Shown here piece after piece: positions 954 to 63,711 of a DNA stretch of 64,000 bases. This stretch comes from Rhizaria sp. SCN 62-66 (taxonomy: Eukaryota), in NCBI GenBank assembly GCA_001724265.1, contig MEDY01000010.1:62001-126000 (forward strand). The letters are read 5' to 3'. Position 1 is the first letter of the stretch, and each line of letters begins with the position of its first letter. Both the position numbers and the translations under genes were made by a program. Below the pieces are notes generated by a model that worked only from the letters and a program-made list of their open reading frames with translations, was not told where the DNA came from and searched no databases.

Positions 954-1003
<50 letters not shown>

Positions 1004-1089: not shown

Positions 1090-1527
1090 ATGAAACGTAC
1101 TCGAGCTTGCAGTGTAACACTTCATGTTTTTTACAAATTAAGATTGATTCGGGTAATTCCATTGAAATGATAGACTTTCATATGTACTTCTATGTTAACA
1201 CTTTTCACATTTAAATAATACATTTTTATTTTCATATCTCTTCATTTTGAACCACGGCTCATTTTTGCTATTTTTGTCGTAAGCATCAGGCCACAGGTCG
1301 TCAATAGGAAGCTAGAAGAGAGAGAGCCTTTCTGAAAGTGAGATTGCATCTAAAGTTTTGATTCTTGATTTACGACTCACAACATCCGTGACGTACAGTG
1401 TTGTTACGATACCCAGTGCATATTTAATCTACAATTTACAGATATATTATATACACTCGTAAATAACTCAATCATAACCGTGTACACCTTGATTACAATC
1501 CGACCCACGCAGATTTCCGTTCCGGTC

Positions 1528-3243
1528 ATGTCTTCTTCCTCCGCCGCCCCCGCGGCGGCTGCCACCACCCCCGCCCTCGCTGCCGCTTCCGCCGTGCCGC
1601 AGGAGACCCCTCTCCCCATTCTTGCGCCGAAGCCCCCTGCGAAGATCGACTCGATGGGCCCGCACAACAACATGGTGGATGCACTGCTCACAGATCTCTA
1701 CCAGATCACGATGGCCTACGCCTACTGGAAGTCTGGCCGCCACAACGACGACTCCGTGTTCGAGCTCTTCTTCCGCAAGAACCCATTCGAGGGCGAATTC
1801 ACCGTTTTTGCCGGGCTCGACGACGTGCTGCGCTTCGTCAACACCTTCGGCTTCTCGGCCGAGGACTGCGCCAACCTGGCTGAGCGTTTCCCCACCTGGG
1901 ACAAGGCCTTCTGGGGTTATCTCCAGTCGCTCTCAGCCAAGGACATCAAGCTCTACGCCATCAAAGAGGGCTCTATCGTGTTCCCGCGCATCCCGCTGCT
2001 GCGCGTCGAGGGCCCGATCGCGATCTGCCAGCTCATGGAGACGACGCTGCTCGTGTTGTGCAACTACGCGTCGCTGCTCACCACCAACGCCGCGCGCCAC
2101 CGCCTCGCCGTGGGGCCCAGCAAGACGCTGCTCGAGTTCGGCATGCGCCGCGCACAGGGCCCCGACGGCGCGATGTCCGCGAGCCGCTACTCGTACATGG
2201 GCGGCTTCGATGGTACGTCCAACGTCAAGGCCGCCATCATGTTCTCGCTCGCTATGTCGGGCACGCACGCGCATTCGTTCGTCGCCGCCTTCTCCTCGCT
2301 CTCCGAGGTGTCCGTGAGCACGCTTGAGCACGCGCAGACGGGCGAGAAGGTCGAGTTCCTGGCCAAGGTGCTCGATTACCGCGCCAAGCTCAACCGCCCC
2401 AACACAAACTCTGGCGAGCTCGCCGCCTTCGTCTCCTACGCGCAGGCCTTCCCCACGGCCTTCCTCGCGCTCATCGACACCTACGACACGCTGCAGTCCG
2501 GACTGTGGAACTTCCTCGCCGTCTCCCTGGCGCTCAACGACCTCGGCTACAAGCCGCGCGGGCTGCGCCTCGACTCGGGCGACTTAGCGTACCTTTCCCG
2601 CCGCTGCCGCGCTGCCTTCGTTGACGTGTCGGCGCAGTTCGGCGTCGCGTTCGAGAAGCTGACGATTGTGGCGAGCAACGACCTGAGCGAGAAGATCCTG
2701 TGGGCGCTCAAGGAGCAGGGCCACGAGATCGACTCGTTCGGTATCGGCACCAACCTCGTTACGTGCTCGATCCAGCCAGCGCTGGGCGGCGTGTACAAGC
2801 TCGTCGAGGTCAACGGCAACGCGCGCATGAAGATTTCGCAGGACCACGCCAAGGTGACGATCCCGGGCCGCAAGGCGGCCTTCCGCCTCTTCTGCCAGAT
2901 GGGCCAGCCCATCCTGGACTACATGCAGCACGCCTCAGCCGCGCCGCCGCAGGCCGGTGACCGCGTGCTGTGCCGCCACCCGTTCGACGCCAACAAGCGC
3001 GTTTACGTGACGCCCTCGCGTGTGGAGCCGCTGCACGATCTGGTGTGGGACGGCGCGCTTACGGCGCCGCTCGAGGACCTCGACGTGCGCCGTGCGCGCG
3101 TGACGCAGCAGCTGACCGACATCCGCGAGGACTACCTGCGCCGGATCAACCCCACGCCGTACAAGATCTCGCTCTCGCCGGAGCTCTTCACCTACATGCA
3201 CGACCTCTGGCTCCACGAGTCCCCCATCGTCGAGATTAACTAA
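1528..3243 (+). CDS. NAPRT: Nicotinate phosphoribosyltransferase, intronless, 571 aa
   Basis: Motifs LLTDLYQITMAYAYW, FELFFRKNPF, EFGMRRAQG, GTHAHSFV, LIDTYDTL, RLDSGDL, FGIGTNLVTC, ALGGVYKLVE, KVTIPGRK. ATG at 1528 chosen because the upstream part of the ORF is AT-rich and non-coding-like; TAA stop. Confidence 0.97.
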   Translation: MSSSSAAPAAAATTPALAAASAVPQETPLPILAPKPPAKIDSMGPHNNMVDALLTDLYQITMAYAYWKSGRHNDDSVFELFFRKNPFEGEFTVFAGLDDVLRFVNTFGFSAEDCANLAERFPTWDKAFWGYLQSLSAKDIKLYAIKEGSIVFPRIPLLRVEGPIAICQLMETTLLVLCNYASLLTTNAARHRLAVGPSKTLLEFGMRRAQGPDGAMSASRYSYMGGFDGTSNVKAAIMFSLAMSGTHAHSFVAAFSSLSEVSVSTLEHAQTGEKVEFLAKVLDYRAKLNRPNTNSGELAAFVSYAQAFPTAFLALIDTYDTLQSGLWNFLAVSLALNDLGYKPRGLRLDSGDLAYLSRRCRAAFVDVSAQFGVAFEKLTIVASNDLSEKILWALKEQGHEIDSFGIGTNLVTCSIQPALGGVYKLVEVNGNARMKISQDHAKVTIPGRKAAFRLFCQMGQPILDYMQHASAAPPQAGDRVLCRHPFDANKRVYVTPSRVEPLHDLVWDGALTAPLEDLDVRRARVTQQLTDIREDYLRRINPTPYKISLSPELFTYMHDLWLHESPIVEIN

Positions 3244-3861
3244 GCGCGAGCGCGAGCGAGATTTGCTCAACAATAGTCAGACGGTGGGATGTTAATGTCG
3301 TTCCGGCTCAAGAACGTTGTACATGCGAGGTGTTGTTGAACACGCGCGTGTACAGTTTTTGCTGATGTCTATTTTTTTTAAAGTAGTTTTTGTACTTTTG
3401 TGATTGATTGTTGTTCTAGACACTAACGCAATGTGCGACTTGGGTTGGAGAGTGTTTGCAGTCGTTTGTCATGTCGTTTTCTTCGTGTCTCCCTTTTTTG
3501 TTTGCTTCATGGTAACCAGACGAAGCTATTTTCGTTCCTTGTTTTTCGCTGTACTTGCTGATCCCACCCATTTCTCTGTCCATTGATCTGTGCTCATTTC
3601 TAAACTTCCATATACACATGTTTTTTTTTTGACGAATTTGAAGAATTGAATATGTAAAATTATCGGTATAAAAAGAAGACTATGTATAGAAAGAAAACGC
3701 CTATGATCATCACAACACATATCAATGGCTATTGGAGTGACTCAAACAAGGCTCAACAGACCTAGACTGGCCCCTCTGCAAGGCTTTTGCACTTCGCACT
3801 CACTCCATCCAACCCATTCTGACTGTAACTCTGGCAGTGGCCATTGCTGTTCACAGCTCGC

Positions 3862-6256
3862 TCACTGCATGTACACGACGTACTGCGGCAACTCCCCCGC
3901 GATGGCGCTCATGAAGATGCGGTCGTTGCCAGTCATGTGCGTGGCGTACTGGACCCAGATGTTGTTGCGGTCACCCATCTTATGCGATTCGAGCAGCTTG
4001 AACAGCATTTCGCGACGCAGGTTCATCGCAGCCTGCTGGTTGAAGATGAACGCTTGCGTGCCCTAAATAAAGCAATAACGAAATGATGAATTGAATCAGA
4101 ACGTGAGAAAGACGGTATACAATGAAGGAGACAAGAAACTACACCATTCAAAATTAAAAACACGTTGAATCATCACAATTTCAGTGTCGACAAGTTCGAG
4201 TTATATCGCATTTGCGTCTCTGTCACCACGTACCTGCTGCGGCCGGTAGCTAGACCCGGGGACCCAGAAGCCCTGCGACTTGAAGGCCGTTGTGTCGGTC
4301 CTATTGGCCCACAGCAGGGGCTTCTCGGCCGCGGGACCCTTGTCGCGCAGCTTCTTCATGCGCTTGATGTCGGCCATCTCCTGCTGCTTCGCCGTCGGCT
4401 TCGACGCCTCCGCGGACACCTCCGCCAAACTCTCACTGTTGCTGCCGCTCTCGCTCTCAGTCTGGCTGCCAGCTTCACGGTCGCTTTCGCTGTCACTGTC
4501 GTGGCTGTGGCGCAGCGCGGACTCGGCCGCGATCTCGGCCTCGATCGCGGCCAGCGCAGCGGCCTCGGCCTCCGCCTGCGCCTCCGCGGCCGCGTCGGCC
4601 CCGGACTGGGTCTCGGCCAGAGACGCCTCAGCAGCGTTGGCGTTAGAGCTGGAACCGATGGTGAATTCGTCCGCGTGGGCGCCGTAGACGTCACCACCGC
4701 TGCCCCAGCCAAGCCCACCGGTCATTGCACTGGCCCCTTCGCTCGCCCCAGCCTCAGCAGTGGCCTCAGCAGTGGCGGTGACGATGGCCTCGGTCTCGAG
4801 GAACGCGTTGGGCTTGCTAACGCCGCCCATGCCCTTGGCGGAGGCGGCGTTCTGCGCCTTCTGCGTCTCAAGCCGCTCCTTCTGCGCGGCCACACGCTTG
4901 TCCAGCGCCTCCTGATCGCCGCGGTGGCGCGGCGGCTGCGGGCGCGGTGCGCGGATGGCCTTCTGGAAGGCCTCGTCGTCGAGCATCTCGGCGACGGTGA
5001 GGACCGAGTGCACGTTCTCCTTGACGCAGCTAGCGCTGTTGCGTACGTCGAGGAAGGCCACCTCCTGGTGGTAGCCCTCGGAGACAATGACGCGGAGCCG
5101 GTGCGAGATGGGCCCGTCGACGCCGTGCACGTCGTCGCGCCAGAGCAGCTTGAAGAAAGCCTCGTGCGCCATGTGCACCACGGGCAGTGGCGTCACGAAG
5201 CGCTCGGGGAACTCCATCATCAGGCGGATGGGGAGGGACCCTGAGTGCGCGGGCTGCTTCAGTCCCTCGAGCACGGCGGCCTGGAGGAAGTCGGGGACGG
5301 CTGTTAGGTCGAGCGACTGCGTGCCGACGATGCCGTACTCGTGCCGCATCCACTGCGTGAGCTTGTACAGCGCGTGCACGTCCGTGGTGTAGTAGAAGGA
5401 CTCGTGCCCGCCGCGGCCGCGCGCGATGTCGAGCCACGCGAGCAGAAACTGGTCCGCGTCAACCTGCGTGAACGGCTTGCGCGCGCGCGCGGAGAGGAAA
5501 GCCATCACCTGGACGAACTCACCGAAGTCGCCGCCCCACGTGCGCGGCGAGCCCAGGTGCGACTGGCGGCCGTCGACGCAGGCGAAGGATGCCTGGTACG
5601 ACGACACGAGGCGGACGTCGTTGATGCTGCCGATGAGCCGCTTGAGGTACGGGATGGCCAGCTCGCGCGACGCCGCCACCGTGGTGTCGCGGTGTGTGCC
5701 GGGCTTGTAGAGCGTGATGCGGTGCGGCACTAGGCACTGCGAGTGTTCAAGCTGGCGTACGCGCTCGGGGACGTGGCAGAAGCAGGCCGCCTGCGCCTCG
5801 AGGCCCTTGAGGTCCAGGCGGATCACGCCACCCGCAATCGGTTCGATGTCGACTATAACGAAAATAAGATAAGCAAACAACATGACACAAATTGGTGAGA
5901 TGGAGCGGTGACCGAATGGACAGGTTTGGGATACGAAGGCTGCGATGGGATGGGGGAAGGGACGTACTGTGGGCGCTCTTGAAGAGGTTGTTGGAGGTAT
6001 CGGGGCGCGTGGGGTCGATGGCGTCGTAGTTGACCTCGGGGTCGTTGCCGCCCTCAAGGTCAGCGCCTGTGAAAGCGTCCGTGTCCGCGAAGGTGGCGGC
6101 GTCGGCGTCGGCCTCGGTCCCAGCCGCGGAGGCGAGGGCCGCGTCGGCGGCGGCGGCCACGTCGGCGGAGAACGCTGGCGACGCGCAGAACGCAACCAGC
6201 GCGAGAACAAGCGCCAGCCACGCCGCGCGAAAAGCGTGGCGAGGACGCTCGGTCAT
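3862..6256 (-). CDS. Signal-peptide protein with zeta/cadmium carbonic anhydrase-like domain, 3 exons, 702 aa
   Basis: Exons 6256-5968, 5852-4234, 4062-3862; introns GTACGT..TAG (115 and 171 nt) keep frame, total 2109 nt, TGA stop. N-terminal hydrophobic stretch AAWLALVLALVAFCASPAFSA; motifs CVDGR, GGDFGEF, FYYTTD, HSGSLPIRLM, AFFKLLW, EGYHQEVAFLDV, TQAFIFN. Gene model is firm, family assignment tentative. Confidence 0.65.
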
Positions 6257-6918
6257 CACACTGCTTGTTAGAATGGTGGCGGAGAGGGCAGAGAGGGTGA
6301 GCAAAGGCAAGGAGCACAAACATGGGTCAAACGAGTGCCTATCACGGTCAATAGTCCGTCAGCAGGCTTTTTGAAGAAAGAGTACAGTTAATAATAGCGG
6401 GGGTATACTATGCGTTATTTAAATTTCAAGAGGACTTCACAATGGTCCGTCTTCGTACGTAGAAGAAGGGGCTAGGTGGTAAGCTCTGCTGGAGTGTTGG
6501 CTGACTGGACCGAGAAATTGTGGTCGTCAAATTTTGTGTTCGCTCTCGAACGATGACAGTCAAATCGAGCTGTTGAAGGGCTCGATCTTGGCAACCCCAT
6601 TGTGAGTGTATTTCTGTCTAGAATAGCGGTTTGGATTATAAATCGAGTATAAACCTGGCTGTATTATGTTCTACGCCAAATGGATTATCGGACCGAGAGG
6701 GATATCAATGCCATATCTTGTTGTCCAAAGCAGCCTTTGGATGCACGAGGCGATTGCTCCATCTGCATGAGAATGACCGCTTCTGGGCATTAATAATCGA
6801 TGTTTCTACGATTCTAGTTTTTTCTTGAGTTGATTCTACTATAGTTACATCTTGATATTGTGCTTGTCTCTCACAACTCTTGCTTTATACCTGGATATTC
6901 GCCCCACAGGTTTCCACC

Positions 6919-8636
6919 ATGAGTGAGGACAAGAAGCAAATCGAGAACGTTTACGACGTCATTGAGAAGTCTGTGCCCGCTGAGACCCTCGGTGCGGTTC
7001 ATCAGCTCCTCTACGGCGGTGCCCCTGTCTATGGTGACATCCCTGCCGCGGCTAAGGAGCTTGCCGAGAAGGAGGACTTCGAGATCCGCTCTTACGTCAT
7101 CCCTTGCAAGGAGGAGCAGCGCCGCGCGCCCCGCCGCGTCAAGATCGCCGCGATCCAGAACCACATCTACGCCCCCACCACGGCCCCTGTCCACGAGCAG
7201 TACAAGGCCATCGAGGCTAAGGTACGTTTTTATCATCTTTTACCCACTTTATTCTGAAGCTGACTCAGTTGTGTTGCCGCCCTCATCCACCTCCTTCTGT
7301 CACCCACTCCCCCGATCTCCGACTCTCACCCTCTCCCCGCCGTAGATCGAGGTGATGCTCGACGCCGCCGCGGCCGCGGGCGCCAACATTGCCGTCCTGC
7401 AGGAGGCGTGGACGTGCCCCTTCTTCTTCTGCACGCGCGAGAAGTACCCCTGGCTGGAGCTGGCCGAGAACGCCGCCACGGGCGAGTCGGTCCAGTTCAT
7501 CCAGCGCAAGGCCAAGGAGCTCAACATGGTCATCGTCACCTCGATCCTCGAGATCGACGAGAACCACGCCGACACCATCTGGAACACCTGCGTCGTCATC
7601 TCCAACAAGTACGTCCCTGCCACTATCTATCACATCCCATCACATACATTCATGGGTCTGCTTCGCAACACAAGTCATGTTTTTGTGGACACGAACCTTT
7701 CACGATCAATATTTCACCACGAGCTCTAAATATGTCATCAAACTACACCCGGGCCAACGGGAAGTTTTATAATGCTCGACATTTTTACTTATCATCATCC
7801 TGATATTCTTTCCCGCTGTTCTTCCCTGCGACCTCTTCAGCGGCGGCATCATCGGCAAGACCCGCAAGTACCACATCCCGCGCGTCGGCGACTTCAACGA
7901 GTCGACCTACTACTTTGAGTCGCAGGACCCGGTCCAGCCTGTCTTCGAGACGGCGTTCGGCCGCATCGGTGTGTCGATCTGCTACTCTCGCCACTTTCCC
8001 CAGGCCTGGCAGTGTCTCGCGCTCAACGGCGCCGAGATCATCCTCAATCCCTCGGCCACCACCGACGGGCTCTCGGAGCCGCTGTGGTCGATCGAGGCGC
8101 GCAACGCCGCCATTGCCAACTCGGTCTTCACCGTCGGCATCAACCGCGTCGGATCCGAGACCTTCCCCAACGAGTACACATCCGGCGACGGCAAGCCCGC
8201 GCACAAGACCTTCGGCCACTTCTACGGCTCGTCCTACGTCGCCGGCCCCACCGGCATGCGCACGCCCGCGCTCTCTCGCACGCGCTCCGGCGTCCTGATC
8301 TCTGACGTCGACCTCAACCAGTGCCGCCAGGTCCGCAACACCTGGGGCTTTCACATGTGCGCGCGCTGGAAGGACTACGCCGAGTACGTCAAATTACACA
8401 ATGTTGTTATGCTAGAACGACATATTATCACGATATCTTTTTTTAGTTCTATTTCTATGCTTTAGAGCTGTAATGCTGTCAACATCAAACTCAATTCACA
8501 TCACAAAACTCATGATCACCTTTCCAATATCTTGTTGCTTAATCATTCCAGGTTCTACAACGCTCAGCTCAAGCCTGACTACAAGCTCCCCATCATCCGC
8601 GACCCCAGCCTCCCCGCCGTCAAGAAGGACGAGTAA
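6919..8636 (+). CDS. UPB1: Beta-ureidopropionase (beta-alanine synthase, nitrilase superfamily), 4 exons, 397 aa
   Basis: Exons 6919-7221, 7346-7608, 7841-8383, 8552-8636; three GTACGT..YAG introns. Spliced product has [41 protein letters not shown] (Glu-Lys-Cys triad), [45 protein letters not shown]. Confidence 0.97.
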
Positions 8637-9122
8637 GTGACAGAACAGACAGGTGCTGCCTTGTTTAACACATACTTCTCACTCTCTGACCGTCTCGTTG
8701 CTTCTTTTGCGCTTCCACATGCTTGAAAGCGCGTTTACATTTCTTGTCCCTGTCTGAACATCATTTGTCTGATTTGATTCGAGTTGGTCGTGTTTGAGTG
8801 ATGACGCGCTCTCTTGCCTGCACTGTACAGCTCAACCGAATGCTGTAGGCGAGTGACGAGTCGTCACTATTGTGGTTCGATTACGTGTTTTGTTTCAACT
8901 ACTGTAATTATTATTCTTTCTTTTCCTGTTTGTAACACACGTCGCTTGATTGTAAAGACAGCACATCAGCAATACATGGTATAACCTTTTGTTTACTTTC
9001 AACATCTGTTCGCATTTGCTCATGAAATGACATGACATAGAGGAAAATTCAATCAATGTATTTCGTATTTATATAACCTTATTTTAATTCAAAGTATCAT
9101 TTCTGCGCGTAATACAAGAATT

Positions 9123-12100
9123 TTAGATGTTGTACTCGACGAGACTGGCCTGCGCGAGCTGCGAGGCAATCGTGAGCACCTGCAGCCGCAGCGGCGCCTG
9201 CCGCAGCGCGCCCTTAAGCGTCTTGGGTACGACGATCCCCGCGGTGCTGATGTGGCTTTCGCGCGCCAGCGTCGCCGCGATCGCGCGCTTGCGCTCGGCG
9301 CGCGCGGCGGCCTCGGCGGCCTCGCGGCGCCCGCCCTCGCTCGCGCCGAAGTCATCGTCGTCATCGTCGTCGCCGTCGCGGCCGGTGTCCGAGGGCGTGC
9401 GCAGGCGGCGCCGCGTGACGAGCCGCTTCTGCAGCGGCCCGCGCCACAGCTCCGCCTCCTCGGCCGTCACGGACACATCACCGCGGCGGCGGCGCGCCTG
9501 CTGGCGCGTGTGGCCCTCGAGCACGGTGTGCGCGCGGGCGGCCGCGGCGCGCGCGTCGAAGGGGGCCAGCGTGAAGCTGCGGCCAGTCTCTTCGTCCGTG
9601 ATGCGGAACGTCAGCACTACGAACACGCGCTGCGCGGCCTCAGGCGCGTCCAGGCTGGCCAGCAGGCGCAGCTGCGCGTCGACCTCGGCGGCCGTGACGG
9701 GCGCTGTGTGAGAAAGCGAGAGTTTGTCGCCAGCGCCGGCGCCGGCACGAGAGCGGGCCTCGAGGGCGCGCGCGCGTGCGAGCGTGAGCAAGTCCGCCTC
9801 GTCTTCGTCGAGCACGTCCTCGCTCATGTCGAGCTCGTCGGCGGCCTCGGCCTCGGCGTCCAAGTCAGCGTCGACGTCGCCCAGAAGCTTGTGCTGCGCA
9901 GTAGCAGGCGCGGAGACAGCGGCACGAGAGCTACTGTCCGTGGGAGCGGCAGGCGGGGGAACAGAAGCAACCTCCGTGTTGACGGGCTCAGAGACAGCAG
10001 CAGGAGCGTTGGCGTCGTCCGCGTTGCTGCCCGTGACAGCGCTTGCAGACGCATCTGCGGAGTTAGCGTTCGGATCAACAACTCCGTCAGCGACAGGAGC
10101 CGCCTGATCAGCAGGGGCACTGGCGGCGTCAGACGCGGCGGCACTAGAGTCAGCGGCGGAAGGAACAGCGGCGTCAGTGTTGGCAGCAGCGGCATCAGCC
10201 TCGGGAGCCTTGGTCTGGTCACCACTCTCAACAGCAGCAGCAGCAGGCTCAGTAGACGCAGCGCCTGCGGCAGCATCGGCGGGAACAGCGGCGTCACCCT
10301 CAGGCCGCGCCTCAGCATCAGCCTTGGGAGCAGCCTCCGCACCGGCGTCGGCGGGCTTGGCCTCCGCGTCAGGGTTACCAGTTCCTGTAGGAACGGCGTC
10401 GGCCGGGGCAGCGGTAGCACTCTCAGCATCAGCGGGCACAGCGTCGGTCGCAAGGGCAGCATCAGCGGCCGTCCCGGCATCAGCAGAAACAGGTTCAGCA
10501 ACCATCATCTCAACAGTTGCTGGGGCCGGGGCAACGTCAGTCTTTTGCTCATCGCGGTCAGCAGTAACGCTCTCAGTCTTCGCAGCCTCTGCTGCAGCAG
10601 CGGGGGCCGCTTCAGCGTCCGCTTCGGCCTTGGCCTTGGCAGCAGCCCTGGCCGCGGCCGCGGCGGCCGCCCGGGCCTCAGCGCGCGCAGCCTTGCCAGC
10701 CGCGGCGGCGCGGCGCTTCCGGAGGATCGAGGCTGCGATTTGGCTATGGTGCGCGGCGGCCACGGCCTCGAGCGACAGCGCAGAGAAGGCGTGCAGCAGG
10801 AACGACGGCACCGCGACGGGCGCCGCGCTCTGCTGCTGCTGCTGCTGTTGCTGCTGTTGCGGGGGCTGTGGCAGGGCAGTGGTGGTGGAGTTGGGCGACG
10901 AAGAGGGCGGCGCGGGGCGGCGGCTGCGGTCGGTGGACTTGCGCGACAGCGTCCCCTGCTGCTGCTGCGGCTGCGCGGTGGTGGAGTGCGTGGCGGTGAC
11001 CGAGGGCGCGGTCGAGTACTGCGAGATGAGCGACGAGTCCAGCGCGCCGAGCCCGCGGCGCGTTGCCGCGCGCAGCAGCTTCGAGCCCGTGGGCGCAGCG
11101 TTATGGGCGCTGTGCGTGCTGCTGGGCTCGGCGTGGTGATGCGCCAAGTCGGCGTCGGTGAGAGACGACGAAACGAAGTCCACGAGCGAGTCGTCGCAGC
11201 CACCAGCAGCCGCAGCAGCAGCGTCGGTGGAGACGTTGACCGCTGCGTCCGAGTCGGCGTGCGCGTCGGTCGCGATCGCCTGCGTCGTCTGCGAGAACGA
11301 CGCGGCGAACCGCTGCGCGCGCGGGCCGGCCGCCGGGGCCGCAGCGGCGGTGGCGGCGCTGGCGGGCGGCGCGACAAACACGGGCAAGTCCTCCGTGGCC
11401 TCCTTGAGTAGCGCCATCGTAGTCGCGAACCCGGCCCCGGCGCCGCCGCGGACGCCGCCGCCGGTCACCGCGCCGCCCAGCGAGCTCGTGCCAGTCAGCC
11501 CGCCGGTGAGGTCGCCGGCGGCGGTGTCGTCGGGCGCGGTGGAGAGCGCGATGATGTGGAAGTCAACCGCGACTGACGCCGCGGCGGCGCGCTTGTTAAG
11601 CGCGCCGATGACCTGCGTGGCGTCATTGGGCCGACGCAGCAGCGCGAGCTCCAGCGGCGACGCGCCCAGCGCCGAAGACAGCACCGCGGCGTGCAGCGCC
11701 GAGGCCGAGGGCTGCGGCACGCGCATCGCGGCGGCCGCGGCGGCGTCGGCGGCGGCTAGCGCGGCCGTCGGCGACTGCCGCTGTCCGCCTCTGGACGACA
11801 GACCGCGGTTCGCGGCCGCCGCGCCGGTCGAGCCCGCGCCGCCGCCGGCCGCCGCGCCAGAGCCAGAGCTCGAGCCGGAGCCGGAGCCGGTGAGCAGACG
11901 GGGTGGGGTGAAGCCGCGCGGGGAGCTGCTGCCGGCGGCGTTGCCGGAGCGCGAGATCGACCGGGGGGACGACCGGGCCGCGGGCACGGCGCCGCTGCTG
12001 TTGCCGGCGATGGAGACGGTCCGGCCGCCGGGCAGGGGCGGGACAGGGCTATGCGAGCGACCGCTGCCGTTGCCGCTGGCGCCGGCGTTGCTGTTGCTGC

Positions 12101-15100: not shown

Positions 15101-15795
15101 CGTCGTCCCCGGGTTGGCCGTCGCTGCCGCTGGTGCGCGACACGTGTCCGTCGCCGTCACCGAAGCTGGCGCGGAAGCCGTCGCCGCGGCTGTTGCGGGG
15201 GCTGCCGCCCGCACCCGTGGGCGACCGCGGCTGCACCAGAGCCCGTAGCACCGGGCCCGCGCGCGCGTCGAGCTGCGCCTGCAGCAGCAGCGCGTGGCGG
15301 CGGTGGCGCGCCAGCGAGCGCGGGCTCGGGGGCGCGCCGCCGCTGCCGCCACCGCCGCTCTCGGCAGCGCCGTCGCCACTTCTGTTGCCGAGGGGCGCGG
15401 CGCTGGCGCTGCTGGTGACGGTGACGACGGGCATGGGTGCCTGCTGCGTGACAGAGCCCTTGCGCGCTACTCCGGGGGCCGTAAAGCCGCTGGAGCTGGT
15501 GCCGCTGCCGCCGGTGACGGAGCCGCGGCTGCCGAGGCGCATCACGCCCTGCTGTTGTTGTTGCTGCTGTTGCTGCTGCTGGGCCGCGAGCGCCGCGGCG
15601 GACTGCGCGGCCGCGTGCGCGGCGGCGGCGTTAAGCAGCGACGGCGGCAGCGCGAGCGTTTTGAGCCCGCTGCCGCCTACGGACACGCTGCCGACCGCGG
15701 GGCTGACCCCGCTGGCGCTGGCGCTGCCGCTGCTGACAGCGGAGTTGGCAGGATAAAACGGGATCCCGCCGGCCTGCGCCGTGGCATTGCTAGCA

Positions 15796-15849
<54 letters not shown>

Positions 15850-17243: not shown

Positions 17244-17920
17244 ACTGGGCCGGTGAAACGGACGGATATGAGGTTCTGCGATTGCGTTTGTCTCGAGTTG
17301 TGAAGGGGAAACAAGGCTGGATGTGTCCATGGGGAAGAATATATATTTTGTCAGAAAAAGTTTGTAGTTGTATAAATAAAGTGTTAATTGTTTCAACAAT
17401 ACGAATTCAGTCTAATTGATGATCTTATCACGGAGAATTTCACATTTGCGTTTCGGCCGTTTTTCTTCCCCTGTCGGTCGCAGTCCTAGCCTTGCTGCCA
17501 CTCGCTGCGGACGTATTCAGGCCAGCAGCGTCATATTTCCACATTACAACACAGAGTGAACCTTAACTACGAGGTTTGAGGCTGAGACATTGATATTTGA
17601 TGCAAAAAGGCACACGTTAAATCTTCCTGCGGTTATTTCAAGTGTAGACTGTTATAAGCAATCATTGTATTTGTACAGTGTCACTCAGTCACCCCATCAA
17701 TAAGCAGATCTGGACCAGGTCATACCCAGCCAGAGACGTTTAGTTGATAAGAAAGCAAATAAGACACCGTATATAAAAGGACAACAACACATCGATCAAC
17801 ACTACGCCGCGCCGTGAGTCATCAAACCATACATCGTAACAGACTCCAGTTGGTCGGTTCAATGCTATGCGGAACACAGCGCTCTGCGGAACACTACACT
17901 TCTCCCCACTTGCTACTTGC

Positions 17921-18954: not shown

Positions 18955-19417
18955 TACTCCTGCAGAAACGGGGTGGGAGGGAGGAGGGGTAGGATATACG
19001 TGAAATGCGATGATGACGAGGGAGGTGACAAAAGGAATATTGAGTAAATGCCGCAAATAAACTGATTTCAGAACCATGCGCTATTCCACTGTTGTGATGC
19101 GGCGTATTGCTTGCGTTTCACATCGCAATCGTCTCGTTTTCGTTTGTGGTGGCTTCCGCCCATTGTGCCCACAGTCGTACCGTTTAAAGTGACCAACTAC
19201 TTAGATGAGGCTTCTCTAACATCATGGTCTTATCGTCAAGCAGACTGTCGACACGTGTATACGATGCCTATGGATTTGTTTTATATACTCCCGCTACGAC
19301 TGTCCTTACATCGCTGATCTAACCTTCCAACACGACCACTCTCTTTCACTGCTCAGCACACCACACACTTCGCTCGTGTCAGTCTTTGCATCCTGCACGA
19401 GAGTCAAACTCCTCACG

Positions 19418-29603: not shown

Positions 29604-30412
29604 GGTTGCTGCGTTCGTTGTGTTGACGGAACCGTGCGCAGAGCGGGGCGACTCAGGGAAAGAGCTATGCGTGAAGAATAAACGAGAAAACAACACAGGA
29701 AAAGATGTCGCGATGTAAGAGACTCGTGCAAGAACGATTAGAAAGCATGATGCGCTCTGGGAAAGGCGGTGAAACGAGAGACCTGGCTCCGAGTGGTCTA
29801 GGCATGGCTGGGAAAAGGACTAGAGTTACATGAAGTAGCACTTTACACAGATGGCAAAAACGGATATATATACCCTCGTCTGCTTTTTACCCTGACATGT
29901 TTTGCTTTTCATATTTGCTTAAGACGGGGACGCTCCCGAATCCAACTGCGCGCACGGAGCGACCGCAGTTAGGTCGGTTCGAATCGGTTCGCATTTCGCT
30001 CTGGACTTTTTGCGAACCGCAGCTGATGGTTTTTTTAGTCGGTCGACCGACAAACATTGAAAAGCTGCTCAGATACCGTCATCTTGGAACTCTAAAGAAA
30101 CAATACAGTACATTTTATATTTAAAATACCTTGTATTAATTTGCTAGATAGTCTATATCAGTGTTGTGGTCTTCTTCCCATCTCAGCGGCAATGCCACTT
30201 TGTGACGTGTCATTGAGGTTCCAACTGAGGTCGTTATAAAGATGCACACCCAGATATAAACAATTGGCCAGCACTCTTCGCAACATCGGAACGCGCATGT
30301 GAAAAGGTCAGACAAAGAACAATGAAGATGTGACGCACACGAAGATGAGAGCCTACAGCAGTTTCAACGCTTAGCACACACCATATAGACGATTGCTGCC
30401 ATCATGAAAATA

Positions 30413-34867: not shown

Positions 34868-35719
34868 GATATCCGAGCCGTTAGAGTGGGTAATTTCAGA
34901 TGGAAAGGCACAACCGGATGCTTTTTTCGCCGCGTCAAGCTGCGACTTGTGTTTTGAGGTTCCTTAGCTGCTCTTGTGTGCTGGCTTTGTCGACGTCAAA
35001 ACTGCTTAAGGAAGCAAACCAATATACAAATATATTATTGAGCATACAACCAATCCGAGATGGAGTGAGCATTGCTGATGGGTGTCATGTACTTCTCATT
35101 TAGGAACACTCGTTTTGTGTTCGTGACCACTGACCTAAGCCATGACCAGTGATCTTGAGACATGCATGTACAATGAATTCATCAAAGAGTCAAATAGATA
35201 ATACATATTTGAGTGAAAGGCATCACCATACGTTTTGGCATCGCCCGACTAATACCAACAATGTGACGCATTTCCTGGCCACAAAGCAGCATCGTTTACT
35301 GGGTGCTGTGTGGAGAAGGATTTGGAGTCAAATTTCTGACAGTGACTTCGCTAAGAAGGTTAATAATACAAACACAATTGTACAAAAAAGAGAAGTCCAT
35401 TGTTACTTTGTTTGACGATCGGATTCTCACACAATAGCCCTCAGTCGAAATCGGCCCCAAGTGGAAGAGGACAAAAACTGCTTCAGATTGGATCGCTGTC
35501 GATTCACCAGTTCAAATATTGAACATCTGTCCTGCCTTGTCTTCAACGCTATTTCAAATGCAGTTGACATATATATGACATTTTTATTACGATTATTTGT
35601 ATGTTTTATGGGAGACAATTCAATGACTTCTTCATTGCGCCTAACATGTTTTCCTTTCATTCTTTTGAACACAACGGTTACCCTGTCCGTTCATTGCGTC
35701 TCTCCACTGACAGCGCCCG

Positions 35720-38700: not shown

Positions 38701-41700
38701 GGCCCGCGAGAACTCGGTCTCCGCGTCGCGACTCACCGCCACGGTCGCCGCGGCACTGGGCCCGGGGGCAATCGCGGGCGACGACGCCGCAGCGGTGGCC
38801 ACCTACCTTCGCGCCTCGGCGCCGGCGCGCGCAGACGAGCTGGGCTGGGAGGCCGACAAGGTCGACAGCGAGTACCCGCGCCTGTCGTCAGAGGCGCACG
38901 CTGTGTTGACGCCTCTCGCGGTACCCCCGCCTGACAGCGTTGATGGCAATAATCACGACGCTGAAGAGGGACTGTGCTTCTCGTCTTTCGCGGCGTCAGC
39001 GCTTGTTATCGACGACAACGAGCGCGCCGAGGCCGAGGCGCGCGCGCTGCCTCTGCTCGGGGAGGCCTTCGCGGTCCTCACGGGCAGCAAGGCCACCGAC
39101 GTCGCATCACTTTCGCGCTCCACGGGTTCCAAGAACGGCGCCAACGCTGACTCGGCGGCTGCGGGCGACGACGACGACGCGTCGCCGTCACCGCGGTTCG
39201 CTTCGGCGGCCGGCCTCGGCCTGGGTGCCTCGGACGAGCGCGCCGCCGCGCGCAGGGGCGTCCTCTCGAAGACCGCGCTGGCACGGGCCTACGCGACTTT
39301 GTTCCCCGCGCTGCCGGCCCCCGTGCTGCGCGAGACGATCACGCGGCTGTGGCGCTCGCTGCATCTGTACGCGCACGACTTTGCAGCCAAATTGCAGCAG
39401 GCACCGCAGCAGTCTGGCTCTGCGATGGGGACTGCGGGGGCGCGGCTCGACTTTAACTTCTTCCGCTCTCTCTTCCCCACAAAGCTGCTGCTGCGTCTCG
39501 GCGACGAGGGCCTCGTCCATTTGCTGCGGCAGCACTGCGTGACCGCGACGGCGACGTCGGCTGCTGCCCCGGTCGCCATGTCGGCTGACCCCAGCGGCGC
39601 CGGCGCCATCCAGGCCTCCGCGCCGGTCACAGGCGCCGTGCGGCTACCGGCTGAGTGGCGCCGCTGTCTGGCCTCGCTGGCGGGCACGTGGTGCACCAAG
39701 GATGTCGCCACAGTGCTCTCGGCGGACGACGCCGCGCGCGCCGCCGCCGGGGAGGACGATGCGGCGCACTTGCCCCATAAGATGACTGTGAACGCTGTCG
39801 ATATCGATGGCGGTGAGAACGGGGCTGATGAAGCTGCCGCTGATGCTCCGGCGAGAGGCGACGACGAGGGCGAGAACAGCGGCAACGACACCGGGGTTCG
39901 CAAGACACTCAAGATCGACGAGTACGTCGGCGACGGCGGCAGCGGCCGTGGACTGGTGAACCCCCTCGCTCCCCCGACCCCGCACGGCAACAGAGGCAGC
40001 ACGTCCGGGGGCTTTCCCATCAATGCAGCTGTGTCCGCGTCCGCTGGCCCGCTGAAGGAAGCCGCCGCTGCCGCCGTTGCCGAGACTGCGCGCGCAGTCA
40101 GCGCCTCGCTGTCCCCCGGCAACGCCGCGCTGGCGCTCGCGTGCTCGGACCCCGCGTCGCTGACCGCGGCGCTCGCCTCCGCGATGCGCGCCACCGCGGC
40201 GTCGCCTGTCCAGGCCGCGTTGCGCAGCAGCAGCCGCAGCAACGGCGGCGGCGGCGGCGGCGCCGAGCAGCCGGCCGCCAGCGGCGGCAGAGGCGGGCTC
40301 GGCAGCGCGCTGATCGAGCTGCTGCAGTATCCCATCGGCATGAAGCAGGTGCTTATCCACTTGCTCTGGCTGCCCGTGCACCTCAACCTCGTGCGCGGCC
40401 TCACCTCGAGCAACCACGTTCGCAGCGCGCTCCTCGCCACGGCCGCCGATGTCGGTCTGCGCACACACCTCACCGTGCCCTCGGCCGACGGCGCCGCGCC
40501 CGCGCTCGTGTCAGACCTGCCGCTGACGGCGCTACCGCCCGCGCTTGCGCCCTCCGCGCTGCTCTCGGTCGCCGACGCGCCCGTCCTCGCCGGCCTGCCG
40601 CCGCAGGCGCGCGTCCAGTTCCTCACGGCGCGGCTGCGCGAGCGCGCGCTGGCCCCGCTGGCGGCGGCCGCGGTCGGCGCGATCAAGGCGCTCTCACTCG
40701 GCCTCAACGCCGTCGCCGCCCACAGCCACCACAGCACTGACTCGAGCGGGTCTGCTGTGCACGGCGCCCGCTGCCAGGCGGCCGGGCCCGCGATCGTGGT
40801 GCTCACCGTGCCTGACTCCGGCGCCGCGGCGGCCGCGGTGCCGTCCTACGCGGCGCCCCGCGACGCGGCCACCGCGGCCGGCACCGTCGTGCTGTCCGGA
40901 CGCTACCCGCACGTCCCTGGCGACAGCGCCCACCGCGGCCCCGCCGCCGTGAGCAGCCGGCTGTGGACGCCGTGGCTACGCCGCGTCGCCGCCGCCACGG
41001 GCTCGCTGTGCGCCAGCACGACGGCCCCGCCTTCGCTCACCACCGCCGCCGCCGCGGCCGCGCTGGGCGACCCCGCCGCCGCCGCCGCCGCCGCCGCCGG
41101 GGGCCGCAACGCGCGCGGCAGCGGCTGGGAGCAGCCCCGCGGTCGCCTCGCGCTGCTGCCCGGCGCTGGCACCGGCGCCATCGCCACCGCGGCCGACCGC
41201 GCACGCGCGGAGGCCACCGGCGGGCTGCCCGTCGGCGGCGACGGTGCGCTGCCCGACATGGGGGCCGCCCTCGCGCACCACGCTCACCACGGCCACGGGC
41301 ACGAGGCGGACGACACTGGCGCTGACGGCGGCGACGGCGGCTTCCTCGCACACCCAGCGGGCGCCGCGTACGCGGGCGCTGTGCCCGCGACTGCGCTGGG
41401 CGGTCGACTCGCCGTCACCGCGCCCACGACGCAGTACCTGGTCAAGGAGCTGGCGTACCGCGAAGCCGAGTCAGCGTCATGGCGCGACCTCTACGAGCAG
41501 GAGCGCCGCCGCGCCAGCGAGCTGCAGCAGCAGCTCGAGCTCGCGCGCTCGGCTTGGCGTGTTGGCGTCGCGCCCAGTCACGCCGCCGCGAACGCGCTGC
41601 CGTATGCGCACGCGCTGGCCCACGGGCAGCTGCGCACTGACCGCGGCGGCGGCGACCGCGGCGGCGACTACGGCCCCTCGCACTACGACGACGACGGCGA

Positions 41701-43051
41701 CGACGGGTCGGGGCAGCACATGGGCGGCGGCTGGCGGCCCGCGCTGCGACACGCGTCGCCGCCGCGGAGCGTTCTGGCGCCGCCCATCCCCCTGCCCGTC
41801 GCCTCAATGCCCTCCGCCGTCGCGGTCACTGCTGCCGGCGAGACCACCAACAGCAGTCAGCGTGCGGCCGCCGAGTCTGCGCGGCTGCGGTCGACGTCCG
41901 CGACGCTGCGCCCGCGCTCGCTGGCCGCCATGGCTGCGGCCGGCGACAACGGCAGTTACGCGCCACACCACCTCATGGCCTCGGCGCCGCCGCCGCAGAC
42001 CGTGGCCGCCGACGGGGACAGTCTCAGGACTGCGCAGGCCGTGGTCGCGGCGAAGCTCGCCGCGATGCGCCGCGCCAACGCCAGCGTGAGCGGCGGTGGT
42101 GTGCTGGCGCCTCCCGCCAGCGTTGTGCCCAAGAACGGCTACTCATTCGACATGACAGTAGGCAACAACTCCGGCGCCCCCCGCGTGCCCCACGCGTACC
42201 CCCCGGTGCCTGTAAGTACCCACTTAGACGGGTCCGCGCCGCCTGTGCCGAGCGCGATCCGCGACCTGTACTCACAGTCGCAACTTGGCACGGCGAGCAT
42301 CCGCCCGGGCCCCAGCAACACGTTCGGACTCAAGGTCACGGGCCGCGGCCGGCCAGCGACTGCGAACCCGGCGTCGAGCCGGTTCGGCAGCAATGCGAAC
42401 CGTGCGAGCGATAATGCAGGTTTCGACGACAAGGCTGACGCAGCTGACGGGGAGCCGGTGCAGCGCGCTGCTGGTGGCAGCGCACAGCAGAGGGACAGTG
42501 CTGCAGCCGGCGGGATGTCGCCGCGCGAGTATTACGACATCCAGCGCCAGCAGCAGCAGCAGCGGCCACGCACTGCCGCAGTCGCCGGCCAGCAGCAGCA
42601 GCAGCAGCAGCAGCATGCAGTCAGCTTGGAGCTCCAGGGCCAGGCCGGGGTCACCAAGTTCGTCCCCGCTGGCGCCGGCAGCCACGGGCGCAACGGCTCT
42701 GGCCCTTCAGCAGGCGCTGGGCACCAGCAGCCGAGCGGCGGCGCAGGCTCTGGTGGCGCCGGCTCTGGTGTCGGCACTGGAGTCAAGAGGCCCGTTACTG
42801 CCGGCGCCCGCCCTTCAGCCACTCAGCCCGTCCGCCTGCGTGCTGCGACGAGCGCCGGCGGTGCTGGCGGTGACTGCGACGGCGAGGACGACCAGGGCGG
42901 TGTGGGGCGCGTGGGCGCGGTGTACCGGGGGCCGGAGCCGGAGACGCTGTACGACTTCCTTGTCGTGAAGCCTAATGATGCTGAGAGTAGCGAGGAGGAA
43001 GATAAGGAGGATAAGCCTTCGGTTGACTCGAAGGACGAAGTATATGATTAA
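35720..43051 (+). CDS. Large coiled-coil / low-complexity hypothetical protein, 3 exons, 2343 aa
   Basis: Exons 35720-36928, 37084-37247, 37393-43051; both introns GTACGT..YAG and frame-preserving; heptad-like region about 37880-38330; repeated RPx[ST]A motifs; TAA stop. Confidence 0.85.
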
Positions 43052-43411
43052 AATAGCTTAGTGAACAGCTGTGATTTTGTTTAAATAGATTTAACGTACT
43101 TGTATTATCTATCTATGCTACCATATCTCATGTAAGTTGATTTTACCACAAACGACTTCTGACTCCTATTTGCAGCGCGGTTCTTTCCCGCCCGACGTGA
43201 CCATACGCGAATCTCTCTGATCTAGGCCAATACGATCGTCAAAGTCGTAGTTTGAATATAATCCAAATTCACTACTAAGTGGCGTACTGATATACAAATC
43301 TGTCTTGCTGATTTCGTCGATTTACATTCTGGAAAGTACTATGCTATTTTGCATCTCAGACCCCAGCATAATCCTGATCCATTTCTTTGCGCGCATATTT
43401 GTTCACAGCAG

Positions 43412-43643: not shown

Positions 43644-43682
<39 letters not shown>

Positions 43683-43978: not shown

Positions 43979-44255
43979 GCGACTCGTTGTCTGTTAGCAC
44001 GACTCGGTGTTTGCTCAAAGCTGGGCTATATAAGGGACAGTGCTGTATTATACTTGCGCCGTGAGGCGTCTATGGGCACTGCCGGAGAGACTGTAAGTAA
44101 ACTGTAAACAAAACAAAATTATGTGAACGTAGTACACGAATGCGTACTCGATACAAAAATAACAAAACCTTAAATCAAAATCAATCAACTACGGACGCTG
44201 CTGCTAGGCTGCGATACCGAGTGCGCCGATCGCCGGAAATGCATGACTGCTTGCT

Positions 44256-44926
44256 TTACTTGCGCTCGGAGTAGCCCCAGAAGCGTGGGGGCTTGAACTT
44301 CTCGTAGCGCGGCGCGTTCTCGGCGACGTACTGCTCCGTGGGTGCGAAGGAGCCGCTGGAGTACTTGCCGTCGACGGCCTCGCCTCCAGCGGTGGTGGTG
44401 AAGTGACGGGAGGACGCCATGGCCTGTGATGGGGGGGAACACGTGAGCACAAAGCAATAGATATCAGTAGAAATACCGCGTGAGACAATGTTCGCCTCAA
44501 AAACACATATAAATCTAGGTAATGTAATTGACATGTAGTCCTCTCTGAATAGCTCGTTTTAGCACTCCTAGATGAGTGAAATGTGTCCTGTTGTCATATG
44601 TAACGGACCTCCTGAGTCATGGTGCGCGCGAACTCAGCGCGGCGAACGGGGTTCGTGTTGATGTGGTACTCGTCGGGGGCGGGAAACGAAGCCGAAGAGA
44701 AGTTCTTGGTGGTGACGTAGGGAGCGTCTGTAGATAACGTTGATAGAGTAAGCGAGAGAGGATGTGACAATGGGGGGTGAGACTGGGTGCAGGTTGTTGT
44801 CACTGGGGATTGTTGGGATAGCGCGCATCCATCAGTTTTATCACTTAACCGGAATTCTTATAACGTACCATTGTTGTCAGTGTCACCATACTTCTGCTGC
44901 CACCAGTACTCGCCTGCAGTCTGCAT
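44256..44926 (-). CDS. Small 3-exon hypothetical protein, 114 aa
   Basis: Exons 44926-44869, 44727-44609, 44423-44256; donors GTACGT and GTCCGT, CAG acceptors; total 345 nt in frame with coding-type codons; TAA stop. Confidence 0.78.
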
Positions 44927-45466
44927 GCTTGAGAGCTGTACGTGTGTGAAAAGGTAACGATCCGTTTCATCGTCAACAGGGTGAGAAAAAAGCAAGGACG
45001 GTTATACACGGTGTACACAGGTTTCGAAAGATAAAATCAGTACATCATATAAAACTAACACGAATATCATCTAACAAACGGACAACATTTTCATTGACGG
45101 ATGTATGAACGAGAACAGCTTGAACTCCTTGGTGCGATTCACGATCGTGACCGTGAACGGGCTCCGACTCTCGCCCAACCACCACATCTATTCCTCCTTT
45201 TTCGCAGATGTATACCTTGTCACGTAGACCATCAGTTAGAATGTAATTGCGTGCATACGAATTCATGTTTTCTCGCCTACCTATTTCTATTTTGTTTATG
45301 TCGTCACTCATCGTATTAACTGCTCTGGACCTATTTTTTTCCCACCCCCTTCGATCGGTAGAACTCTCTCTAACCTCCCCCCGAATACCTAGCTCCAGCT
45401 TCCACCAACTTGGTCAAAGCTCTCACCCAAGACCTTCTCAACCTAGCCCACCTTCCTTTTCACATA

Positions 45467-46513: not shown

Positions 46514-46832
46514 GTGCACCGCATCGCTTCCTGAATTATTGCACCTTGTCGTTGAGATCGCTTGCTGATGTGGGTGCTTTATCCAAAGTTATTGCAGCTT
46601 TTTGTTGCTGACGTGTGTGGGCCAGACGTGTAAACCCTGACTGGACGCTGAGTTTGTGTTCATACAATACAAAACATGTCAACTCGATATCAATGGTTGT
46701 AGTTCTTGTATTGTGTTTGAAAAATAAAACTATGTCAACTTGTGCTAATGTAACGAAAATGAACACAAAATGATCATTTTGTGCTTTGTGCTCTGTAAAG
46801 GTCTAGGTTTTCATGAGATGCGGGTTAGCGTT

Positions 46833-47684
46833 TTAACGAGAAGCATTGTAGTTGTTCCCGTCATAATGCCTATCGCGCTCAGAGCGATCACGGCTCGCCC
46901 CATTGGTATGGCTGTTGCCACTGCCACTGCGGCTGTTGTGATGACGCTGCTGCTGCGTTCCCCAATGAGTCTGAGCCTGACCCTGAGCCTGGCCCTGCGC
47001 CTGTGCCTGCGCCTGCGGTTGAGGTTGCTGTTGCTGTCGCTGCTGCGCTTGTGACTGCTGTTGGCCCCTCACGTTCCCACTGACAGAAACCACATTCACG
47101 CTCGCATTCCCCTCGGAGCGCTCGCCAAACACAATCGCCTCGGCCTGCGGCACGAATCGGCGCACCGGCGGCGCACCTCCCCCGCCCCCGTCTATAGTGA
47201 GTGCACCCGCACCAGCAGCCCCCGCCGCGCCAGTCACCCCGTCGCCCGCAGCGGCCGTCCCCGCGGTAACTGAGCCTGTGCGCGCGGAGGGCGGCGCGCG
47301 CTGGTGGCGCCGGTTCTTGTTCTGCGCGGCCGCGATGGCGCGGAGCTGCGCGTTCACGGCGTCGCCGACGCGGATATTCTTCGGGATGTGGACGTAGCGC
47401 ACGTGCCGGTTGCGCACCGTGTAGAGCGCGTAGTTGCGCGGCGGGGAGATGGCGTCCCAACCGCCCATGCGCGAGACGCGTGCGTTTTTGAGCGTGATGA
47501 CCCAGTCGTTTGTGGCGTTGGCGAGTAGACCGACGACCTCGTAGTCGCTCGTGAGCTCGACGCATATCTGCTTGTCATAAAGCGCGCGAAGAATGAAGCC
47601 CATAAGGTTGTCGCCGGGATGGGGCGGCACGCGGGGGGCAGTTGAGGCCGCGGATGACGCGCTGGGGGAGGACTGTGCGGACAT
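46833..47684 (-). CDS. LSM10: Sm-like protein, LSM10-like (U7 snRNP-specific), with Gln/Gly-rich tail, 283 aa
   Basis: NLMGFILRALYDKQICVEL..VVGLLANA..ITLKNA (Sm1) and YTVRNRHVRYVHIP..V.DAVNAQL (Sm2); VRYVHIP followed by a helix ending QL is the pattern I recall for Lsm10 rather than SmD1/SmD3/Lsm2/Lsm4; TAA stop. Confidence 0.72.
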   Translation of the reverse strand: MSAQSSPSASSAASTAPRVPPHPGDNLMGFILRALYDKQICVELTSDYEVVGLLANATNDWVITLKNARVSRMGGWDAISPPRNYALYTVRNRHVRYVHIPKNIRVGDAVNAQLRAIAAAQNKNRRHQRAPPSARTGSVTAGTAAAGDGVTGAAGAAGAGALTIDGGGGGAPPVRRFVPQAEAIVFGERSEGNASVNVVSVSGNVRGQQQSQAQQRQQQQPQPQAQAQAQGQAQGQAQTHWGTQQQRHHNSRSGSGNSHTNGASRDRSERDRHYDGNNYNASR

Positions 47685-48247
47685 GGGGTGGAGCGAAATC
47701 TGTTGTCACGAAAGCTCAACGAGAAAGTTGATTAGTTCTCCTCAATGGTCTATGCGTTAAGTATAATTAGAGATATACATATTTTATGAGGGTTCTCAAT
47801 TCATATTGCTGCCACACATCTGTTAACGGAAATATGAGAGCACGGCATGATGTTTAAGCTTGGTTCATCCTAATTTGACTAGTGTTTGAGAGCAAGACAG
47901 AGTTCGTAGATATGATGCTTATACTTGCACATATATCATCACACAAAACACGAACACAGTTGAAACACGTTTATACAGCGCATTAACCTAACGTAACGCT
48001 ATTTAATGTTGTTTGTCGCCATCAATTCCAGCTCTCGAACTGAGCACCGGGTTTAGAGTCATTCGCCACAATGGTAAGAAGTGCTATTTAGTACATGTAC
48101 TACAGAAAACCAGTGCAAAGGAGAGTAAAGTGTAATTGTATTATACAAAAAATACATATCAGGGCTATTTAATTCAAGGTTAATCAAAGATGCATTACTT
48201 AAACAGCATTAATAGTGCTGATACACGTTATCGCGATACTCGGAGAG

Positions 48248-55929: not shown

Positions 55930-55960
<31 letters not shown>

Positions 55961-63671: not shown

Positions 63672-63711
<40 letters not shown>

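Follow-up and report, generated by a model that had tools for sequence, protein, structure and literature searches.

Trans-splicing of a spliced leader (SL) is scattered over the eukaryotes, and whether it had many origins or is ancient is debated. In the SL RNA gene, which is usually multi-copy, the leader sequence precedes a GT donor and an Sm-binding site. We compare three described systems here. In Paulinella micropora and P. chromatophora (Matsuo et al. 2018; PMC6053224), a 33-nucleotide (nt), T-rich leader ends in ...GGCTTTTCTG, transcription starts ∼140–150 nt upstream, and the outron carries a pyrimidine-rich region and an AG before the ATG. The cryptomonads Guillardia theta and Hanusia phi (Roy 2017; PMC5619915) use a 17-nt leader, with 20 SL genes that have the GT and the Sm site; in G. 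theta the spacing between leader and ATG has its peak at 0 nt (19% at 0–1 nt, 36.6% at ≤10 nt), a pyrimidine tract precedes the C/TAG acceptor, and alternative trans-splicing most commonly takes the NAGNAG form. In the eustigmatophytes Monodopsis and Vischeria (PMC8570151), the SL is found on 36–61% of genes, 48–82% of genes lie ≤100 bp from an acceptor, and the SL and 24–239 SL RNA genes were identified from reads. Here we analyze a window of 64,000 nt (contig MEDY01000010.1, positions 62,001 to 126,000; all positions below are those of the window) in which a CAG stands a short way before most start codons, a pattern that a reading made from the sequence alone had attributed either to SL trans-splicing or to near-universal introns in the 5′ untranslated region (5′UTR) with relaxed donors.

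A CAG lies 0–15 nt 5′ of the ATG at 10 of the 13 gene starts (Table 1), and all ten sites proposed in the sequence-only reading are present at the distances given there. The intergenic DNA of the window contains CAG at a rate of 0.206 per 18 nt (both strands, 14,436 positions), and 10 of 13 starts against this rate gives a binomial p of 2.1e-5. We consider it extremely improbable that these trinucleotides reflect chance or a Kozak-like start-codon context: only 13 genes are available and CAG was chosen after looking, but the excess is significant when set against intergenic DNA of the same window, the spacing to the ATG ranges over 0–15 nt and is thus not that of a fixed-position context, the AG-free tracts described below form an independent signal, and an RNA boundary falls at a predicted site.

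The splice signals of the organism were defined from 13 cis introns, five of them seen as RNA joints and eight inferred from reading frames (Table 1). In our list, as in the earlier one, 12 of the 13 coding introns carry a GTACG donor, and the remaining one has GTCCGT; the variants GTACGA and GTCCGT are each represented by one real intron. The introns are 102–232 nt long and end in CAG (eight) or TAG (five), AG is absent from their last 25–116 nt (median 74), and their last 40 nt are 70–80% pyrimidine. The combination of near-invariant GTACGT donors and AG-free ends suggests far branch points and a strict choice of the first AG. A purine at position −4 (RYAG), counted by eye, occurs at 9 of the 13 intron acceptors and at 9 of the 10 sites before start codons.

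The ten candidate CAGs are preceded by AG-free runs of 13–117 nt, with a median of 63 nt compared to 74 nt for the cis introns. These runs are longer than intergenic AG-to-AG gaps, whose median is 9 nt (Mann-Whitney p = 6e-5), and the pyrimidine content at the candidates is 0.53–0.80, over a background of 0.50 (standard deviation 0.12). Because a pyrimidine-rich promoter would likewise be AG-poor, a composition control was applied. The 60-nt stretches 5′ of the candidates contain 10 AG and 23 GA, with 17.9 expected for each (shuffle P = 0.013); in the introns, the same count gives 3 AG for 13.3 expected and 15 GA for 13.3 expected, while upstream of 209 other intergenic CAGs there are 761 AG for 757 expected. 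Composition-controlled tests of the AG-free runs (shuffle-based, Fisher combined) yielded p = 5e-4 for the candidates and p = 1e-4 for the introns, and runs free of GA, AC, CA or TG were not significant in candidates and introns alike. It is AG in particular that is avoided, and base composition does not account for this. An AG-specific exclusion of this kind is produced by selection of the first AG downstream of the branch point, as established for 3′ splice-site choice, and in our judgment the CAGs before the start codons are very probably functional 3′ splice sites, most of them without a cis partner.

Whether such partners exist was assessed by plain pattern counts, since a position weight matrix built on 13 sites over-fitted on the flanks and missed GTACGA 6458. 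As had been claimed before, a sense-strand GTACG lies upstream of three sites only, at 198 nt (6256, minus strand), 221 nt (18954, minus) and 455 nt (6919, plus), and three of ten sites with a GTACG between the neighbouring gene and the acceptor matches the 3.26 expected by chance from the intergenic rate. This bears directly on the possibility that the CAGs are acceptors of ordinary cis 5′UTR introns, with tiny first exons about a hundred bases upstream and donors departing from GTACG. The first two of these distances fall within the range of real introns, and both CAGs, those of 6256 and 18954, may be genuine 5′UTR intron acceptors; looser donors are found 148 nt upstream for 44926 (GTCCGT, minus) and 277 nt upstream for 43412 (GTAAGT, plus). 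Usable-distance donors are nevertheless missing at several sites: GT[AC][CA]G[TA] is absent at such distances for 1528, 29603 and 47684, and 17243 and 35720 offer just a GTCCGT 19–29 nt from the AG. As a general explanation we hold cis 5′UTR introns to be quite unlikely, and the earlier suggestion of near-universal ones with relaxed donors is weakened; the genes at 6256 and 18954 may still be cis-spliced. What is found at 10 of the 13 starts is the signature of an outron, namely a pyrimidine tract and AG with cis donors no more frequent than chance.

RNA evidence comes from four sequencing runs (X1–X4) compared with positions 1–20000 of the window. X1 and X3 represent one sample, X2 is polyA RNA from another study, and X4 is DNA-like, from a slightly different strain, and colinear over introns and spacers, including 6269–7122. 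Two complementary DNA (cDNA) contigs cover the gene starting at 6919, X1 record 2 (1545 nt, depth 29) and X3 record 15 (1550 nt); both are free of mismatches and spliced at three GT..AG introns, giving exons 6908–7219/21, 7344/6–7608, 7841–8383 and 8552–8952/57. Both match the window from letter 25 onward, which corresponds to position 6908, the A of CAG 6907–6909, and their first 24 letters, known by length and position only, do not lie on the window there. At this one locus the DNA has no added letters, X4 being colinear where the cDNA departs at 6908. The joints listed (15 of 119), which included weaker ones with sides of 20–24 letters and lower depth, contain none that places the 24 letters elsewhere in 1–20000 and none that leads into 6908–6910. 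This makes a strong, though not an absolute, case that no other part of the 20 kb encodes these letters, and it counts against a cis intron in this gene. A two-letter junction overlap is also seen at the cis joints of the gene (both 2, at 7219>7344 and 8383>8552), and a leader exon ending in AG would be expected to show the same overlap at 6908, whereas the possible donors at 6455 and 6479 are not preceded by the AG that such an overlap would require. For the gene at 1528, a contig of X2 covers 1514, the second base past CAG 1510–1512, and ends 25 letters away, which is compatible with a leader of similar length without proving one. Each contig carries a single depth figure, and depth therefore cannot tell whether outrons are transcribed.

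A further candidate for the leader emerged from a metagenome scan in which 80 of 370 confirmed stretches were kept. The contig L001 (1740 nt, cDNA-like) derives from a close relative, at 92% on the amino-acid level in exon 3 and 85% on the nucleotide level over the coding region, lacks all three introns, and begins 24 nt before its ATG. Its 5′ end reads GAAATCCTATCTTTTTAAG, then CTCCT, then ATG; it is T-rich, its only AG stands 5 nt before the ATG, and the portion ahead of CTCCT closes with ...CCTATCTTTTTAAG. Judged by its letters, this end is a candidate for a 5′-truncated leader ending in AG, and its third-last leader-side base is A rather than C, which fits the boundary of the cDNA match at A6908. 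Its similarity to the conserved 20 nt of the Paulinella leader is weak (local score 14, p 0.02–0.04). No copy of the L001 5′ sequence occurs in the window when up to 3 mismatches are allowed, and none turned up in the other 79 metagenome loci or the searched literature. The spacers between AG and ATG in the window are divisible by three at 6 of 10 sites (15, 9, 6, 0 or 3, 9 and 15), which is not significant alone (∼0.08), and the L001 5′ sequence read in that spacer frame contains no stop and no ATG.

We favor SL trans-splicing, with somewhat better than even confidence, as the best explanation of the CAGs before the start codons. Under this model, transcription of most genes would start further upstream, and the first stretch of RNA, the outron, would end in the pyrimidine-rich AG-free tract and the CAG 0–15 nt before the start codon. 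The spliceosome would use that CAG as a 3′ splice site for which the same transcript holds no donor, and a separate small SL RNA would supply the 5′ exon, a capped, AG-terminated leader of ∼26 nt or more. Mature messenger RNAs (mRNAs) would then share one leader followed by a very short gene-specific 5′UTR, and we infer that the non-genomic 5′ letters are such a leader, common to many genes and transcribed from an SL RNA gene. The original proposal of SL trans-splicing thus gains acceptor-like sites, AG exclusion, donors at chance level and one cDNA that leaves the genome at a predicted AG, but not a leader shared by different genes; likewise, the check proposed with it, a search for a common non-genomic 5′ sequence on RNA, returned the 24 letters at 6908, on one gene only.

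Several observations weigh against trans-splicing. All ten sites are CAG, as opposed to the 8 CAG and 5 TAG of the introns (probability ∼0.008 if the sites had the preference of the introns), and three of the ten continue as CAGRTTTC(C/G) (p = 3e-6). CAGRTTTC occurs four times in ∼14.9 kb of intergenic DNA (both strands), each time upstream of a gene and oriented in its sense direction: three copies lie 9–15 nt before an ATG, and the fourth, at 45018 (plus), lies 449 nt before ATG 45467, whose gene has no near CAG. No long AG-free tract precedes this fourth copy; its neighbour is the palindrome GTGTACAC, and the divergent gene's CAG on the minus strand is 80 nt away, an arrangement resembling a two-way core promoter. 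Transcription initiators have the consensus Y-A-N-W-Y-Y, and CAGRTTTC looks like one from its sequence, whereas the exon side of an acceptor would not be expected to carry such a motif; the motif is explained neither by the acceptor reading nor by chance, and it could be an initiator or a 5′UTR element.

The alternative that follows, which the sequence-only reading had not considered, is that each CAG serves as a transcription initiator, with its C at −1 and its A at +1, that 5′UTRs measure 2–17 nt, and that the 24 cDNA letters are adapter or primer. Besides the uniform CAG, the shared motif and its promoter-like fourth copy, it is favored by a cDNA match that begins precisely at A6908, after C6907, where the 24 letters may be an adapter or primer tag on a true 5′ end. 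However, transcription start gives no reason for AG exclusion, so that an initiator leaves unexplained the AG-specific zones of 40–117 nt, in which GA and other dinucleotides are at expected levels, as they are in introns. It would also imply 5′UTRs of 2–8 nt in six of the ten genes (2 or 5 nt for 43412, 3 nt for 17243), and no TATA-like element shared at a fixed distance was seen by eye. In the relative, the orthologous cDNA extends at least 24 nt ahead of its ATG and contains no CAGRTTTC, and, also by eye, GTT TCC ACC of the window aligns with coding ATG TCC ACC of the relative. Giardia, Trichomonas and Entamoeba have initiator-driven genes with near-leaderless mRNAs, which the present sites resemble in the short motif within ∼15 nt of the ATG and in the cDNA match starting at the A of CA; they are not known to have pyrimidine tracts, AG-free and intron-like, upstream of the motif, or non-genomic letters at mRNA 5′ ends. 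Taking both sides together, we regard the initiator as unlikely.

The remaining objections to trans-splicing concern the leader. Non-genomic letters are seen on gene 6919 and not on two different genes, and the two contigs that carry them amount to a single RNA observation, since X1 and X3 are one sample. Because the two species cannot be aligned outside coding DNA, the 5′ end of L001 could equally be that species' own colinear 5′UTR. Neither an SL RNA family (Rfam scan, which gave two sub-threshold chance matches only) nor a leader-like sequence (leader pattern, ≤3 mismatches) was found within the 64-kb window. An exact search of prokaryote genome contigs for the L001 5′ sequence followed by GT returned nine bacterial records, unrelated and attributable to chance, and an exact search of viral contigs for the L001 5′ sequence returned 69 matches, again chance: 61 of the 69 are near-identical just before the match and 56 have the same six bases after it, so most of them represent one conserved phage sequence and a coincidence.

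Protein comparisons were also searched for leader read-through, and none was found in the six N-termini inspected from relatives in an exon 3 search against longer proteins, where the best relatives were 80% and 75% identical. The corresponding search with exon 1 of gene 6919 gave two matches, both ∼40% identical, and a protein search with the nicotinate phosphoribosyltransferase returned just the window's own protein and one 87% relative. The 75% relative (L002, on a 201-kb contig) differs in base composition and was of no help.

Table 1. Candidate acceptors, gene starts, cis introns and CAGRTTTC copies in the window. The 13 gene starts (ten in brackets beside their CAG, three on rows of their own) were fixed independently of the CAGs; minus-strand sites are given from 5′ to 3′, introns in their listed order.
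Feature	Position	Strand	nt to ATG (start)	Details
CAG	1510–1512	+	15 (1528)	Nicotinate phosphoribosyltransferase; 69-nt AG-free tract, 1442..1512; exon side starts ATTTCC
CAG	6263–6261	−	4 (6256)	73-nt AG-free pyrimidine-rich tract, 6261..6339; CTAAC 11 nt upstream
AAGCAG	6266–6261	−	(6256)	NAGNAG-type acceptor; possible cis donor GTACGA 6458 (198 nt)
CAG	6907–6909	+	9 (6919)	Beta-ureidopropionase-like gene; 63-nt AG-free tract, 6845..6909
CAG	17247–17245	−	1 (17243)	29-nt AG-free tract; alternative CAG 17278–17276 at 32 nt
CAG	18962–18960	−	5 (18954)	100-nt AG-free, 80% pyrimidine tract, 18960..19061; possible cis donor GTACGA 19180 (221 nt)
CAG	29611–29609	−	5 (29603)	RRP5-like gene; 41-nt AG-free tract, 29609..29651
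CAG (CTGACAG)	35711–35713	+	6 (35720)	97-nt AG-free tract, 35615..35713
CAGCAG	43406–43411	+	3 and 0 (43412)	NAGNAG-type pair; 40-nt AG-free tract, 43367..43411
CAG	44938–44936	−	9 (44926)	117-nt AG-free tract, 44936..45054
CAG	47702–47700	−	15 (47684)	AG-free tract just 13 nt, 47700..47714; exon side starts ATTTCG
Start without near CAG	19418	+		CAG at −35
Start without near CAG	34867	−		CAG at −72
Start without near CAG	45467	+		TAG at −20, CAG at −68
Cis intron	7222–7345	+		RNA joint; GTACGT...TAG
Cis intron	7609–7840	+		RNA joint
Cis intron	8384–8551	+		RNA joint
Cis intron	18395–18561	−		RNA joint
Cis intron	18730–18855	−		RNA joint
Cis intron	19512–19614	+		From frames
Cis intron	36929–37083	+		From frames
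Cis intron	37248–37392	+		From frames
Cis intron	4063–4233	−		From frames
Cis intron	5853–5967	−		From frames
Cis intron	13492–13620	−		From frames
Cis intron	44728–44868	−		From frames
Cis intron	44424–44608	−		From frames
CAGRTTTC	1510–1517	+
CAGRTTTC	6907–6914	+
CAGRTTTC	47702–47695	−
CAGRTTTC	45018–45025	+

The palindrome GTGTACAC is present three times in the window (1480–1487, 33918–33925 and 45011–45018), twice in promoter-side spacers, once 23 nt before CAG 1510 and once directly abutting CAGGTTTC at 45018. GTAC-containing words seem to be frequent in spacers generally. In another spacer, at 48071–48079 (plus), an ATG is followed at once by GTAAGA on the strand opposite to the neighbouring genes, which could be accidental or mark a small first exon that is not annotated.

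The window is nuclear eukaryotic DNA, with GC-rich coding regions (up to 78% per 2 kb) and AT-rich intergenic regions and introns. Near-identical sequence is contained in wastewater and activated-sludge runs of two studies, and the organism is an uncultured wastewater protist. Genes recognized by Pfam include the nicotinate phosphoribosyltransferase (1528–3243), a Kelch/MORN protein, an RRP5-like protein and a MORN protein. In a maximum-likelihood tree of the phosphoribosyltransferase, built from 33 of the 120 matches listed (all with a usable taxon name, plus the closest others), the window protein falls within a clade with an SH-aLRT (Shimodaira-Hasegawa-like approximate likelihood ratio test) support of 98, whose members are Cercozoa sp. 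M6MM, Plasmodiophora, two chlorarachniophytes and transcriptome sequences, and which stands apart from oomycetes, animals, a plant and bacteria. This single-gene tree places the organism probably with the Rhizaria, as a lead only; a protein atlas consulted for taxonomy yielded no usable match.

The start of the Kelch/MORN gene differs from that assumed in the sequence-only reading, whose ATG 19650 proved to be internal: with the frame followed by hand, the gene (plus strand) begins with exon 1 at 19418–19511, which encodes a MORN-like repeat, its intron terminates in CCAG, and the TTTTCAG ATG at 19650 is coding sequence. Very long, low-complexity, GC-rich frames of 1,400–2,600 codons each, with no Pfam match, occupy 9123–17243 (minus), 48248–63868 (minus) and 35720–43051 (plus), and these draw many partial matches from unrelated GC-rich contigs of RNA and DNA runs. 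Downstream of gene 6919, L001 1216–1740 compared with window 8634–9251 shows ∼385 nt of unalignable 3′UTR and then the coding end of the convergent neighbour (73% identity to window 9123–9251). L001 runs into this neighbour, indicating that gene order is conserved between the two species, and the transcripts of the two convergent genes probably overlap or were merged by assembly.

Set beside the described systems, the window resembles the cryptomonads in acceptors right before the ATG, a pyrimidine tract, NAGNAG sites (43406–43411 and 6266–6261) and coexisting cis introns, but differs in that all ten sites are CAG, in belonging to another lineage, and in being known without a leader sequence or SL gene. 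With Paulinella it shares a pyrimidine-rich outron and AG before the ATG and, by the single-gene tree, probably the supergroup; a T-rich leader ending in G would be a further common trait, going by the candidate from L001. The Paulinella leader, however, ends in CTG and not in AG, and the 5′ end of L001 is only weakly similar to it. The large share of genes affected, here 10 of 13, recalls the eustigmatophytes, which are stramenopile algae; unlike theirs, the present case is built on sequence signals and one contig. In the Creative Commons-licensed literature of PubMed Central and bioRxiv we found no rhizarian SL trans-splicing other than that of Paulinella.

There is, in our estimate, about an even chance that the window belongs to a previously undescribed SL system acting on about three-quarters of the genes of a probable cercozoan, with a leader of ∼26 nt that ends in AG, unlike that of Paulinella, and with strictly CAG trans-acceptors 0–15 nt from the ATG. 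The AG-specific exclusion zones offer a practical diagnostic by which trans-acceptors may be recognized from DNA alone. If the system is real, the annotation of metagenomic protists would be affected, because 5′ ends, start codons and mapping rates depend on the leader. In that case, the weak likeness between the 5′ end of L001 and the leader of Paulinella would point to an SL trans-splicing that is old and widespread among Cercozoa rather than peculiar to Paulinella, and a second, distantly related rhizarian lineage with a leader of its own, in a group where such splicing is barely documented, would bear on the question of how often SL trans-splicing arose.

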